NCBI GenBank assembly: GCA_013202925.1
Contig: JABMRA010000087.1
Coordinates: 1 to 57,596, forward strand
Source: Candidatus Omnitrophota bacterium
Lineage (GTDB): Bacteria > Omnitrophota > Gorgyraeia > Gorgyraeales > Gorgyraeaceae
Direction of reading: 5' to 3'
DNA: 57,596 nt
This document shows, one piece after another, positions 2,976 through 20,801 of this stretch. The notes beneath the pieces were generated by a model, which did not search any database, was not told where the DNA came from, and saw nothing but the letters and a program-made list of their open reading frames with translations. The stretch's first letter is position 1. Every line of letters begins with the position of its first letter. The position numbers and the translations under genes are program-made.

Positions 2976-3051
2976 GGGGCAGTAGTTCAGTTGGGAGAAC
3001 GCTACGTTCGCAACGTAGAGGTCGCGGGTTCGAATCCCGCCTGCTCCACCA
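2976..3051 (+). tRNA. tRNA-Ala (anticodon CGC)
   Basis: Hand-folded cloverleaf: GGGGCAG/TA/GTTC-AGTTGGGA-GAAC/G/CTACG-TTCGCAA-CGTAG/AGGTC/GCGGG-TTCGAAT-CCCGC/CTGCTCC/ACCA. The G3:U70 alanine identity pair is present and CCA is encoded. Confidence 0.9.
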
Positions 3052-3198
3052 ACGTAGTTTATCAAGGGATTTGAAACGAGCGAACGCCGAGCGAATAGCG
3101 AGGAAAAGGCCGCAATCCGCGGCCGGCAGTGAGCGAGGTGAGTCTACGCAGTCCGAGCAATCCGCGAGGGCGAAGTAGACGAATCCCGCCTGCTCCAC
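3052..3198 (+). repeat. tRNA-trailing conserved element, copy A (about 128-nt core plus a 19-nt direct repeat of the tRNA-Ala T-loop-to-acceptor 3' end)
   Basis: CGAATCCCGCCTGCTCCAC at 3031-3049 (inside the tRNA) recurs at 3180-3198. The intervening core aligns almost base-for-base with 18813-18914 downstream of tRNA-Met. It contains the hairpin GGCCGC-AATCC-GCGGCC (3108-3124). Confidence 0.6.
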
Positions 3199-18513: not shown

Positions 18514-18651
18514 ATTGAAGGTAAAGACTGCATTGCTCAGGATATCAAAATATCCAGACAGCCTTTAAGTATTTGCAATAAGATAGACCCTTCTTTTATT
18601 ATCGAAAAATACAGGCTGTTCACTCCAAAAAAAGAACTAGGCCAATATCTC

Positions 18652-18680
18652 TTGTCATGATTCGAGTTAGGTGGTATAAT
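18652..18680 (+). promoter_or_regulatory. sigma70-type promoter of tRNA-Met
   Basis: TTGTCA (18652-18657), 17-nt spacer, TGGTATAAT (-10 at 18675-18680), 11 nt upstream of the tRNA 5' end. Confidence 0.55.
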
Positions 18681-18691
18681 TATTTTTCTAT

Positions 18692-18768
18692 GGGCCCATA
18701 GCTCAGTTGGTTAGAGCACCTGACTCATAATCAGGGTGTCCAAGGTTCAAGTCCTTGTGGGCCCACCA
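18692..18768 (+). tRNA. tRNA-Met (anticodon CAT; elongator-type, could alternatively be lysidine-modified tRNA-Ile2)
   Basis: Hand-folded: GGGCCCA/TA/GCTC-AGTTGGTTA-GAGC/A/CCTGA-CTCATAA-TCAGG/GTGTC/CAAGG-TTCAAGT-CCTTG/TGGGCCC/ACCA. G1:C72 is paired, so it is not an initiator. Confidence 0.88.
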
Positions 18769-18935
18769 TATTGTCATAGTAGTTGTAGTGTTTGGACCTG
18801 TAAGGACTTGAAGCGAGCGAGCACCGAGCAAAGCGAGGAAAAGTCCGCAATCCGCGGACGACAGCGAGCGAGGTGAGACTACGCAGCCCGAGCAATCAGC
18901 GAGGGCGTAGTAGCCAAGTCCTTGTGGGCCCACCA
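18769..18935 (+). repeat. tRNA-trailing conserved element, copy B (about 146-nt core plus a 21-nt direct repeat of the tRNA-Met T-loop-to-CCA 3' end)
   Basis: CAAGTCCTTGTGGGCCCACCA at 18748-18768 recurs at 18915-18935. The core is homologous to 3076-3179. Hairpin GTCCGC-AATCC-GCGGAC (18843-18859) shows a compensatory change relative to copy A. Confidence 0.6.
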
Positions 18936-19021
18936 TCCGCCACCAAAGGTGGCGAGATGGTGAGGTCTCGCCCTCCGTCAAAGGCAGAGAGGCGGACCCA
19001 CCAATCCGCCGTAGGCGGATT

Positions 19022-19136
19022 GATCCTGAGGATGCGACGAATAGTAGCATCCGAAGGACCTTCAAAGACGATTAAGGTCCTTCGGTGCCTAAAATGCTTA
19101 TTATTCATTCGCATTTTTTAACGGCACCTCAGGATC
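19022..19136 (+). ncRNA. candidate structured RNA (10-bp closing helix enclosing three hairpins) in the tRNA-Met/tRNA-Val spacer
   Basis: GATCCTGAGG (19022-19031) pairs with CCTCAGGATC (19127-19136). Inside are GATGC..GCATC, CCGAAGGACCTT..AAGGTCCTTCGG (12 bp), and TGCC[AAAATGC..GCATTTT]GGCA. Function unknown. Confidence 0.4.
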
Positions 19137-19157
19137 AAATTTTGCTTCGCAAATTTG

Positions 19158-19234
19158 GGGCGATTAGCTCAGTTGGTTAGAGTGCTGCCCTCACATGGCA
19201 GAGGTCACTGGTTCGAGTCCAGTATCGCCCACCA
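19158..19234 (+). tRNA. tRNA-Val (anticodon CAC)
   Basis: Hand-folded: GGGCGAT/TA/GCTC-AGTTGGTTA-GAGT/G/CTGCC-CTCACAT-GGCAG/AGGTC/ACTGG-TTCGAGT-CCAGT/ATCGCCC/ACCA. Confidence 0.88.
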
Positions 19235-19273
19235 TCCGCCTAAGGCGGACGAGGGGCCAAAGGAGGAAGATAG

Positions 19274-20011
19274 TTGAGCCAGGCAAAGACGATTAAGGAA
19301 CAGATTGGATTTTTGATAGGGCTCCAGGTTATTGATAGAGAGATTTATTCATTGAATAGAGAAAAAAAAGAGATGCCCGCTAGAATCAAGACAATAGATG
19401 AGACATTAGGTAGCAAGAAAACTGGCATTAAGCAGGCAGAAGAAGATTTAAAGTCCTTGCAGGTAAAATTGAAAGACAGGGAGGTCAGCTTGCAGCAGAA
19501 GGAAGATCAGATTAAAAAGCTGCAGCTCCAGCTTTATCAATTAAAGAGCAACAAGGATTATTCTGCGATGCTGACAGAGATAGAAGGGGTGAAGGCGGAT
19601 AATTCTCTCATGGAAGAAGAGATAATAAAATTAATGGACGAGATAGAGGCGGCCAGGAAGAAGATAGCAGAGGAAAAGGAGCTGTTTAAGAAAGAAGAGG
19701 TAAGTTCTCAGAAGGAGAAAGAGGCAATCAAGGCAAGGGGAAAAGAGGTTGATTCGCGGCTTTCCGACCTTTCCTCTCAGCGAGAGAATGTAGTGCCCAA
19801 TATTGAAAAGCAGATCCTGGCGAGATATGAGAGGGTGCTTGAAAACAGGGAAGGCCTTGCGATTGTGGCGGTAGATGATGGCGCGTGCAGCGGATGTCAC
19901 ATGAATCTCCCGTCGCAGGTTGTGAGCGAGGCGAAGATAAAAGAGAGCATTGTTGTTTGCGGGAGTTGTTCAAGGATCCTTTATGTGGAGGACAGCGTTG
20001 AAATCAATTGA
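19274..20011 (+). CDS. coiled-coil protein with C-terminal C4 zinc ribbon (COG1579-like)
   Basis: TTG start preceded by AAGGAGGAAG. Long heptad-rich region, then CSGCHMNLPSQ...CGSCSRILY as the terminal Zn ribbon. Confidence 0.7.
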   Translation: MSQAKTIKEQIGFLIGLQVIDREIYSLNREKKEMPARIKTIDETLGSKKTGIKQAEEDLKSLQVKLKDREVSLQQKEDQIKKLQLQLYQLKSNKDYSAMLTEIEGVKADNSLMEEEIIKLMDEIEAARKKIAEEKELFKKEEVSSQKEKEAIKARGKEVDSRLSDLSSQRENVVPNIEKQILARYERVLENREGLAIVAVDDGACSGCHMNLPSQVVSEAKIKESIVVCGSCSRILYVEDSVEIN

Positions 20012-20423
20012 GATATTTATAGACGGTGCTTCAAGAGGAAATCCCGGGCCTTCGGGCATAGGCATAGTATTCTTCGACGACAAAAAGAACGTCGTTAAAA
20101 AAATATTTAAATTTATAGGGAATGCGACAAATAACGTTGCGGAGTATACCGCGTTTATCTACGCATTGCAGGAGGCGCTTATAGATAGATATGAAGATGT
20201 AAAGATCGCCTCAGACAGTGAATTGTTGACCAGGCAGCTCAGAGGAGAATATAGAGTTAAAAACGAGAATCTAAAACCGTTTTACGATCAGTTTTTACAT
20301 CTTTCGCGAGGATTCAACAGGATCGAGGTAGTTTCAATAGGCAGAAAAGATAATAGCATAGCGGATAAACTCGCCAACAAGGCAATAGATTCGCGGGTAG
20401 ACGGTTCATTAAAAATTGAATAG
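19983..20423 (+). CDS. rnhA: ribonuclease HI
   Basis: IEIFIDGASRGNPGPSGIGIV, NNVAEYTAFIYALQEA, SDSELLTRQL and NSIADKLAN carry the DEDD catalytic-residue context of RNase H1. The ATG at 19983 (or TTG at 19998) is preferred over the track start at 19950. Confidence 0.8.
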   Translation: MWRTALKSIEIFIDGASRGNPGPSGIGIVFFDDKKNVVKKIFKFIGNATNNVAEYTAFIYALQEALIDRYEDVKIASDSELLTRQLRGEYRVKNENLKPFYDQFLHLSRGFNRIEVVSIGRKDNSIADKLANKAIDSRVDGSLKIE

Positions 20424-20785
20424 GCGCAGGTTGGATGGTCGCCTCTGTCTTTAGACAGGGGAGGAAAGTCCGGGCTCCACAGGGTAGCATAGCGGGTAAT
20501 GCCCGTCTCCGCCAAAAAAACACGGCGGAAGGATTAGAGCCACAGAGACGAGTCTGAGAGGCGTTTTATGGTAACGTAGTAGCTTAAGCGTACGTTGCCT
20601 GCTTTTCAGGGTGAAACGCGGTAATCTCTATGCGGAGCAAAACCAAATAGGTCTCGCTAGGAAGAACGGCCCGTTCAGTAGAGCGAGACGGGTAGGTTGC
20701 ACGATCCCGGCAGCAATGTCGGGGCAAGATAGATGACTATCATCCGCCAAATGCGGAGACAGAACCCGGCTTACAGGCCTGCGCC
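20423..20785 (+). ncRNA. rnpB: RNase P RNA, bacterial type A
   Basis: P1 GGCGCAGG (5') pairs with CCTGCGCC (3'). Universal GGAGGAAAGTCCGGGCTCC (P4 5' strand) at about 20458-20477 and ACAGAACCCGGCTTAC (P4 3' strand) at about 20758-20773. Confidence 0.9.
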
Positions 20786-20801
20786 GTATTCATCCAACCC
20801 C

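Follow-up and report, generated by a model that had tools for sequence, protein, structure and literature searches.

Why should a tRNA gene end twice? In a 57,596-nucleotide (nt) stretch of DNA from a Candidatus Omnitrophota bacterium (assembly GCA_013202925.1, contig JABMRA010000087.1, positions 1 to 57,596 of the forward strand; hereafter, the window), the 3' end of a gene for a tRNA with the anticodon CAT, CCA included, recurs behind an insert of about 146 nt, and a related insert with a duplicated tRNA end of its own follows a tRNA-Ala gene. An earlier note, made from the letters alone, had proposed that both inserts are copies of one element, with a constant core and margins that follow the identity of the host tRNA, as would be expected if the element were site-specific and copied its target or paired with it. 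The two copies, referred to as A (tRNA-Ala) and B (tRNA-Met), are members of a genuine multi-copy, non-coding tRNA-tail cassette that is strongly structured, is tied to tRNA 3' ends, and is closed by the sequence of the host tRNA and its complement. It is a previously undescribed structured-RNA family, found so far only in Omnitrophota and absent from Rfam 15. The locus of copy B is organized as follows.

18652-18680, plus strand: sigma-70-like promoter of the tRNA-Met/cassette/tRNA-Val unit (TTGTCA, 17 nt, TATAAT, extended -10 TG; 11 of 12 positions match)
18692-18768, plus strand: host tRNA, anticodon CAT, called Met, possibly tRNA-Ile2; intact, with encoded CCA (ARAGORN; Rfam tRNA, 74.4 bits)
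18748-18768, plus strand: first copy of the duplicated segment, tRNA positions 56-76, within the functional tRNA (100% identity)
18769-18792, plus strand: AT-rich spacer of 24 nt, homologous among orthologous tRNA-Met copies, not conserved elsewhere in the family
18793-18812, plus strand: 5' arm TGGACCTGTAAGGACTTGAA, complement of tRNA positions 54-73, perfect in its proximal 11 nt (18802-18812)
18813-18914, plus strand: conserved core, a three-way junction of about 102 nt (RNAalifold, pair counting, covariation)
18915-18935, plus strand: second copy of tRNA positions 56-76, forming the 3' strand of the closing helix P1 and then a free acceptor-strand/CCA tail
18936-19003, plus strand: separate 68-nt secondary insertion with two strong hairpins (z = -8.7), outside the cassette family (trailer comparison with locus L034)
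19004-19157, plus strand: native tRNA-Met trailer and inter-tRNA spacer, including the hairpin ATCCGCC-GTA-GGCGGAT, homologous to the element-free locus L034
19158-19234, plus strand: tRNA-Val(CAC), downstream in the tRNA-Met/cassette/tRNA-Val unit (ARAGORN, Rfam)

The duplicate behind tRNA-Met is exact and, at 22 nt, one nucleotide longer than had been claimed: CAAGTCCTTGTGGGCCCACCA(T), that is, the 22-mer CAAGTCCTTGTGGGCCCACCAT, stands at 18748-18769 and again at 18915-18936 with 100% identity. The insert was also said to contain the exact reverse complement of the T-loop and 3' T-stem; this is the case for AAGGACTTGAA (18802-18812) against TTCAAGTCCTT (18746-18756), and the complementarity in fact extends over 20 nt (18793-18812 against 18746-18765), with 80% Watson–Crick pairs. 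Most of the mismatches are G.U, and once G.U is allowed on the plus strand 17 of 18 arm positions pair. The distal 9 nt of the tRNA-Met arm vary by lineage, with changes that mostly preserve G.U pairing. As to the host itself, although ARAGORN calls it Met, it carries C4-G69, C5-G68 and the T-loop TTCAAGT, and has an antisense match to Rfam RF04354 (54 bits). Its T-loop is like that of E. coli ileX, and RF04354 overlaps the plastid trnI-CAU region; the gene may therefore encode a lysidine-dependent tRNA-Ile2.

About 18 distinct copies of the cassette were collected, all of them in Omnitrophota assemblies (loci outside the window are numbered with the prefix L). Their hosts belong to at least nine tRNA species, namely Ala(CGC), Met(CAT), Thr(CGT), Thr(TGT), Tyr(GTA), Val(GAC), Val(TAC), Val(CAC) and Gly(TCC), while in three further copies the host tRNA is lost to contig ends; wherever the upstream tRNA is visible, the element lies on its strand. 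When one genome per species was scanned with a 23-nt core pattern, true copies came from metagenome-assembled genomes of Candidatus Omnitrophota only, and a second core pattern, applied to metagenomes, gave ten additional loci. A profile of a spurious minus-strand peptide (see below) had a single match in the protein database, which led to L018, and the Zn-ribbon protein encoded next to copy B was used to reach orthologous loci, yielding more copies. The radical S-adenosylmethionine (radical-SAM) enzyme encoded on the other side was discarded as such a route, its homologues being found in paralogous clusters without the tRNA. All named copy-bearing records are Omnitrophota, and so are those relatives of a window protein encoded nearby that carry a name, by which the window itself is assigned to the phylum as well.

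A covariance model built from the copies, R1, scores 87-151 bits for all of them except one truncated at a contig end (59) and one partial, decayed unit (38). In the window it detects the two known copies and nothing else, and a degenerate 42-nt core pattern has exactly two matches there, copies A and B, with 0 expected. No real copies were found by three scans of viral contigs or by BLAST in phage and plasmid collections; L019 and L020 from these searches, and L001 and L004 from the genome scan, are chance matches. Rfam, run on the window at the gathering threshold and on 18650-19300 at E <= 10, left the insert unmatched and returned only tRNA and noise. The known self-cleaving ribozymes, introns and guide RNAs in Rfam gave no match either, the best intron-related one being group-II-D1D4-1 (13.3 bits, E = 9.7). 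A resemblance by eye to hammerhead, hepatitis delta virus and group I RNAs was rejected on account of the absence of their conserved cores, the insufficient size of the RNA and the lack of a matching Rfam model. A literature search found no paper describing this Omnitrophota family.

Every copy is made of four parts: an AT-rich, non-conserved spacer; an arm ending in ...GAA, which complements the T-loop and 3' T-stem of the host; a core of about 105 nt; and a tRNA duplicate that starts exactly at C56. The nucleotides at the junctions are highly conserved. The core had been described as common to the tRNA-Ala and tRNA-Met copies, and copies A and B do align, at 82% identity. The closing helix P1 is formed by the arm and the duplicate (in copy B, in the family consensus, 18803-18809 with 18916-18922) and is continuous, or stacked, with P3. 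A long core helix (18814-18822 with 18864-18872 in copy B), in which G-C pairs are interleaved with tandem G.A, carries a hairpin at 18824-18838 and the P2 hairpin at 18843-18859 (loop AAUCC); the tandem G.A motif CGAG/CGAG is used four times in the core. The second arm of the junction consists of P3 (18877-18882 with 18910-18915) and P4 (18886-18893 with 18899-18906, loop AAUCA, AAUCM in the family). P2 is the hairpin GTCCGC-AATCC-GCGGAC of the earlier note, and it covaries across the family. The second helix suggested there also exists, with its register corrected from ACTAC/GTAGT to the family-consensus one, G-A-CUAC (18877-18882) with GUAG-C-C (18910-18915). On the minus strand, P2 followed by TTTTCC (18843-18869) scores as terminator-like, which is probably incidental, as the T-run is not conserved among copies.

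Across the family, 96.8% of the cells predicted to pair do so, versus 26-43% when the partners are slid by 1-3 columns; compensatory changes occur in 16 of 34 pairs, and none of 500 shuffles was as good. P1 itself is paired in 94.6% of cells, with changes on both sides in four of its seven pairs. In two tRNA-Met-hosted copies, L031 (2262-2286) and L025 (73-97), UCCGCC-AAUCC-GGCGGA replaces CCCGAGC-AAUCA-GCGAGGG in P4, so that tandem G.A gives way to Watson–Crick pairs; this variant resembles both P2 and a hairpin common in tRNA trailers of the lineage. L014 (496-667) and L013 (1044-1195) carry an extra hairpin domain of about 50 nt after P2, and one L010 copy (2410-2556) about 25 extra nt within P3/P4, marking where the fold tolerates peripheral expansion. 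Genomes in which the Zn-ribbon protein is only about 70-90% identical have cores with 75-98% identity, and the core is therefore strongly constrained. This constraint is not a coding one. Open reading frames (ORFs) drawn across both window copies on the minus strand had been regarded as spurious, and rightly so: 1-2-nt indels separate the copies, stop codons stand in frame in 4 of 13 copies, and only one database protein matches the peptide profile; the indels and stops exclude coding on either strand.

The arms follow their hosts. Over 16 pairs, an arm and its cognate duplicate share a mean of 9.4 contiguous base pairs, versus 3.6 for non-cognate combinations, and in a permutation test none of 20,000 permutations reached the observed total (p<5e-5). 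The view that the variable parts track the host tRNA while the core stays constant is thereby upheld, with the restriction that tracking occurs mainly at the level of four T-loop classes (CGAAU/AUUCG, CGAUU/AAUCG, CGAGC/GCUCG and CAAGU/ACUUG), arms matching by class and being near-interchangeable within it. Long arms, of 11-17 pairs, are found only with tRNA-Met and tRNA-Val(GAC), and in one tRNA-Met copy a mismatch cuts the run to 6. These two tRNAs share the palindromic acceptor end TGGGCCCA; because of the palindrome, an antisense copy and a sense-derived fragment would look identical as sources of the distal arm, and the long arms are insecure as proof of templated antisense copying. As to which tRNA-end copy an arm pairs with, the one informative case is L018, whose arm matches the tRNA rather than a second copy that is mutated; this either favours pairing with the first copy or reflects decay.

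Between the promoter at 18652-18680 and tRNA-Val, the plus strand of the window holds no terminator-like site, and from the sequence we infer that the cassette is co-transcribed with its tRNA. Other cassettes lie inside tRNA operons (L005, L010), with copies between the tRNAs of a Tyr-Gly-Thr operon. This setting recalls the tyrT repeats of E. coli, which were described decades ago; to our knowledge, the origin of these RtT repeats has not been explained, and they are known in enterobacteria only. In the E. coli K-12 tyrT/tyrV locus (L035, NC_000913.3 1286000-1288200), the Rfam RtT family RF00391 finds four units at 133-138 bits, and there are 1-10 units per E. coli genome. The RF00391 consensus has a 3' end, AUCCuuCcCccaCCACCA, that equals the tRNA-Tyr 3' end, a closing helix GgGaaGGAU:AUCCuuCcC, a GA-rich hairpin, an A-rich linker and a GC hairpin.

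The likeness of the two systems is architectural. Like the Omnitrophota cassette, RtT stands directly 3' of tRNA genes on the same strand, in the case of the cassette within the inferred transcription unit. The 178-bp RtT unit ends in the last 19 nt of its host tRNA including CCA, as copy B ends in 21-22 nt of its own; its 5' arm GGGGAAGGAU pairs with the T-stem/acceptor part of the tRNA copy and closes the fold, as P1 does; and its interior is likewise multi-branched, with the GA-rich hairpin (CGAGCG..AGCGAG), the A-rich linker, the GC hairpin and a small hairpin by the duplicate. Both form tandem arrays, and RtT copy number is variable. They differ in that the RtT duplicate starts at A58 and its arm covers 59-68, whereas the Omnitrophota duplicate starts at C56; in that the RtT copies examined are all behind tRNA-Tyr, whereas the Omnitrophota family sits behind at least nine tRNA species with arms changing accordingly; and in that the RtT unit has a sense copy of the 5' half of the T-arm and a small ORF (tpr), whereas two AAUCN loops and four tandem-G.A motifs characterize the Omnitrophota core. 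The sense copy in the E. coli units, CTTCGACCAAGGTTCGA, corresponds to the variable arm and 5' T-arm region of tRNA-Tyr, and each unit thus reads like a tRNA 3' portion that carries a 67-nt insert inside its T-loop.

It is on this architecture that the preferred interpretation is built: an RtT-like, co-transcribed tRNA-tail RNA cassette that spreads duplicatively is the best reading, with a probability of roughly 0.55. According to it, read-through from the tRNA promoter would give a tRNA-cassette(-tRNA) precursor, in which the duplicated tRNA end would supply a tRNA-type ...NCCA terminus and P1 would close the cassette fold. The tRNA-processing machinery might then release the cassette as a discrete small RNA, by analogy with E. 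coli, where release of rtT from the tRNA precursor is reported in the account of Bosl and Kersten 1991 that PMC3318445 cites. The rtT RNA is said to derive from the tyrT repeat unit, with a mode of action given as unknown (PMC3318445; bioRxiv 10.1101/2024.07.17.603846). Since the arm has an identical partner on either side, two folds that exclude each other are open to the precursor: one (a) would comprise the tRNA and the closed cassette, and in the other (b) the arm would occupy the real T-arm while the tRNA 5' strand closes on the second copy. At the DNA level, the arrangement would arise from duplicative, homology-dependent events at the conserved T-loop, e.g. template switching or ectopic recombination, and units would be amplified or lost by recombination between the two tRNA-end copies; neither copying of mature tRNA nor a dedicated recombinase encoded at the site would take part.

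The comparison of orthologous loci bears on these steps. The tRNA-Met/tRNA-Val locus lacks the element in L028 (where the spacer is 21 nt), L032, L033 and L034, and has it in L031, L025, L008, L015 and the window; the element is thus an insertion at orthologous sites, present or absent. The spacer sequence TATTGTCATAGTAG of copy B is found also in L015 and L025, with a diverged form in L008 and L031, and since the spacers are homologous among the occupied tRNA-Met loci, the insertion must be an old one, passed on vertically. Whereas distal arm and spacer differ among the five tRNA-Met lineages, the 21 nt of the second copy are the same in each of them; this segment is either under constraint throughout or copied afresh from the tRNA time and again. 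In one metagenome, three copies stand behind tRNAs of three T-loop classes with near-identical cores (98% for the two compared) and matching arms, which indicates either recent spread or gene conversion of the core only. The left end of the duplicate is constant and its right end is not, as given here relative to CCA.

L018: -3
Copy A: -2
L005a: -1
L007, copy B and L005b: 0 or +1
L012: +5
L014: +8 (tRNA-Gly without encoded CCA; 8 nt of trailer duplicated)
L025: +18
L009: +36/37 (57 nt duplicated, 36 nt of it trailer)

Because the duplicates in L014 and L009 carry gene trailer without CCA, what was copied was DNA, gene plus trailer; a copy of mature tRNA, as in tRNA-primed reverse transcription, is ruled out by the trailer in these two loci. 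Tandem arrays are found in L003 (at least three units) and L011 (at least two), L010 has 1.5 units, and arrays or partial units occur also in L025.

Several points weigh against the RtT-like reading. Homology with RtT is not demonstrable: RF00391 stays below its 45-bit gathering threshold in the window and gives nothing at E <= 10 on 18650-19300 or on the tRNA-Tyr-hosted copies of L010, R1 scores only 7-11 bits on E. coli RtT, and local alignments are no better than dinucleotide shuffles (z = 0.2-1.6). Experimentally, release of a discrete RNA is reported for E. coli rtT only. Template switching alone explains neither the exact core|C56 junction of every copy nor the three 98%-identical cores behind three T-loop classes in one metagenome, whose class-matched arms call for gene conversion limited to the core or for a mechanism by which the arm is templated anew. 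Finally, the unpaired acceptor/CCA tail is invariant in five lineages in which the distal arm differs, which implies a constraint for which the RtT-like model accounts only in part.

An active mobile element that pairs with its target is an unlikely alternative and yet one to be taken seriously. The cassette, as RNA or single-stranded DNA, would be guided by its arm to the T-loop of tRNA genes or transcripts and be inserted at U55|C56, by a trans-acting reverse transcriptase (target-primed synthesis with snap-back), by a recombinase recognizing the folded target-mimic hairpin, or by self-catalysis, and arm and duplicate would be re-made each time. This would account for the invariant left junction at C56, the strict orientation and the perfect covariation of arm and T-loop across the four classes, but the arms are 6-10 nt long and specific for a class rather than for a tRNA. 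The 98%-identical cores behind three different tRNAs of one metagenome, the existence of orthologous sites both empty and filled, and a target duplication that varies from -3 to +37, resembling target-primed insertion, likewise point to mobility; against this, the tRNA-Met insertion is old and vertical, with spacers homologous across lineages, and ordinary recombination explains the partial units and arrays. The high conservation of the junction nucleotides is what would be expected for a catalytic or protein-binding RNA, and pairing of arm and duplicate would recreate the 54-73 duplex of the tRNA gene, but no Rfam ribozyme or intron model matches, no reverse transcriptase, recombinase, transposase or nuclease adjoins either window copy, and the viral, phage and plasmid collections yielded no autonomous relative. 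Of the original proposal, in which the element is site-specific and copies its target or pairs with it, the insertion and the host-dependent flanks stand, whereas the class-level arms, the lack of a nearby mobility enzyme, the right end ranging from -3 to +37 and the RtT precedent weaken the rest.

The cassette shares with miniature inverted-repeat transposable elements (MITEs), other non-autonomous transposons and the repetitive extragenic palindromic and bacterial interspersed mosaic elements that it is short, multi-copy, non-coding, structured, intergenic and assembly-breaking. However, its terminal 'inverted repeat' is the host tRNA sequence with its complement, changing with the host instead of being constant in the family, its target duplication is 18-57 nt and variable in its right end, unlike the fixed-length one of MITEs and DDE-transposon derivatives, and both site and orientation are tied to tRNA 3' ends.

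A further question is which tRNA-end copy the arm pairs with, for which folding had been suggested as a check. The answer depends on the molecule that is folded. The element alone closes P1 on the second copy (z = -3.15), whereas in the full transcript of tRNA and element nearest-neighbour folding places the arm on the true tRNA copy in 5 of 8 loci (P 0.85-1.0), the tRNA 5' acceptor strand pairing with the second copy. This topology is predicted to be 3-13 kcal/mol more stable than the native tRNA plus P1 (about 10 in seven of the eight loci). As such energies ignore tRNA tertiary structure, modification and the order of transcription, they indicate that a competing fold exists, not that it forms, and covariation cannot separate the first copy from the second. 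Computationally, the segment thus has two exclusive pairings, both energetically plausible, as a bistable switch would require.

It can accordingly be asked whether the cassette is a cis-acting bistable switch on tRNA maturation, in which the arm would sequester the T-arm and 3' half of the tRNA, the second copy would act as anti-sequestor, and the core would be a sensor for a protein or ligand governing P1. If so, the cassette would tune the output of functional tRNA. We consider this rather improbable, though likewise to be taken seriously. The three-segment logic of first copy, arm and second copy fits it, as do the predicted preference for the first copy and the similar preference of E. 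coli tRNA-Tyr plus RtT for the arm-on-first-copy fold (P = 0.99), but the energies carry the omissions just mentioned, and a tRNA folds before the arm is made. It would explain why the acceptor strand and CCA of the second copy are invariant although unpaired with the arm, and why the L018 arm fits the tRNA and not the mutated second copy; on the other hand, divergence of the distal arm between lineages would make for a weaker trap, covariation is blind to the distinction on which the idea turns, the candidate sensor has no known partner, and it is hard to see why many unrelated tRNAs should need one sensor. Three-segment attenuators and riboswitch platforms offer a precedent, in that one segment has two partners and a conserved domain is closed by a switching helix P1; their competing partner, however, is a terminator or ribosome-binding site, whereas here it would be, according to the folding model, the upstream tRNA body.

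More doubtful still is the notion that the cassette is a self-propagating element at the RNA level, that is, a catalytic or reverse transcriptase-dependent RNA with an arm guiding it to tRNA T-loops and a 3' end joined to C56. Were this so, it would represent a T-loop 'intron-like' element with a surrogate 3' exon, or a bacterial retroelement resembling short interspersed nuclear elements, and E. coli RtT would be a relic of this process; the functional intermediate would then be the alternative fold, with the tRNA body closing on the second copy.

Tyrosine integrases acting at the T-loop sites of tRNA genes classically leave a duplication that runs from the T-loop to the 3' end, and the two tRNA-end copies could in principle be the attL and attR of a degenerate island or prophage, with 146 nt left after deletion of the rest. 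Such islands, like the cassette, leave the tRNA intact by means of a direct duplication and have occupied and empty sites. Nevertheless, this origin is highly improbable, because the same core of about 105 nt, with RNA-type covariation, lies behind at least nine tRNAs in several species. Whereas an island spans kilobases, the cassette insert is about 146 nt with no integrase, integrase fragment, cargo or conserved ORF between the repeats; the core|C56 junction lacks an inverted core-type site, the duplicate has no fixed right end, selection for RNA structure acts on the interior, and the unit also occurs in tandem arrays. Integrase remnants can in effect be excluded, as can coding ORFs and assembly artefacts, and the last and weakest alternative, that two tRNA loci were joined in a chimeric assembly or that the minus strand holds a real protein gene, can be dismissed, since, even though the element breaks many short-read contigs (those ending in or near it include L006, L011, L013, L025 and L036-L038) and ORFs of 98-120 amino acids can be drawn across both copies, the same ordered architecture recurs in more than 10 independent assemblies from four sources (NCBI, JGI, ENA and Logan), with contigs spanning it in L005, L009, L010, L012 and L031, and the indels and stops in four copies break a shared frame whose peptide profile matches one database protein.

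Copy A, the other member of the family in the window, has the following layout.

2976-3051, plus strand: tRNA-Ala(CGC), host of copy A (ARAGORN, Rfam)
3052-3198, plus strand: copy A cassette with spacer, arm, core and duplicate (model R1, 142 bits)

Its P1 is formed by 3066-3072 with 3181-3187, and its duplicate, tRNA-Ala positions 56-74, lies at 3180-3198 with the first copy at 3031-3049. The surroundings of both copies are of a housekeeping kind: copy A is flanked by genes for type IV pilin-like proteins and RsmE, and copy B by the radical-SAM/B12 enzyme upstream and, downstream, by the CT398-like Zn-ribbon protein, RNase HI and RNase P RNA. The latter is of class A (20423-20789, 215 bits), and the order tRNA-Met, tRNA-Val, CT398-like Zn-ribbon protein, RNase HI, RNase P RNA (19274-20789 in the window) is kept in L025, L028 and L031-L034.

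Several features of the tRNA flanks lie outside the cassette. Since the native tRNA-Met trailer starts at 19004 by comparison with L034, the 68 nt between it and the second tRNA-end copy (18936-19003) are a separate small insertion; it is flanked by the repeat CCCACCA(A)TCCGCC (18929-18941 and 18997-19010), and only two other copies of it were found, in L015, on either side of the cassette there. Trailers in this lineage typically open with a hairpin (A)TCCGCC-NNN-GGCGGA(T) right after CCA (19004-19020 and 19235-19250 in the window, L006, and L034 9199-9216), which may be a common 3'-processing or protection signal. On the 5' side, tRNA genes share a leader composed of a nested hairpin of about 60 nt (e.g. 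CAGCAGC..ACAATCC..GGATTGT..GCTGCTT) followed by TCAAATTT-N7-9-AAATTT abutting the tRNA 5' end; it is seen at 2897-2978 (tRNA-Ala) and 19085-19159 (tRNA-Val) in the window and before tRNA-Val in a relative (L033 9500-9597), and these stretches match no Rfam family at the gathering threshold.

As for what the cassette means, an independent family of this kind in a distant phylum, behind many different tRNAs and with strong covariation, makes the combination of arm, structured core and tRNA-tail copy a recurring design, not an enterobacterial oddity. As the arm, the duplicate and the host tRNA all vary, the copies constitute a natural comparative series in which a passenger, a switch on tRNA maturation and a mobile RNA can be tested against each other. 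Omnitrophota gain a well-supported new class of structured RNA, and since the element is best classed as a remote variant of RtT and not as unprecedented, a long-standing oddity of E. coli becomes a comparative class that can be tested.

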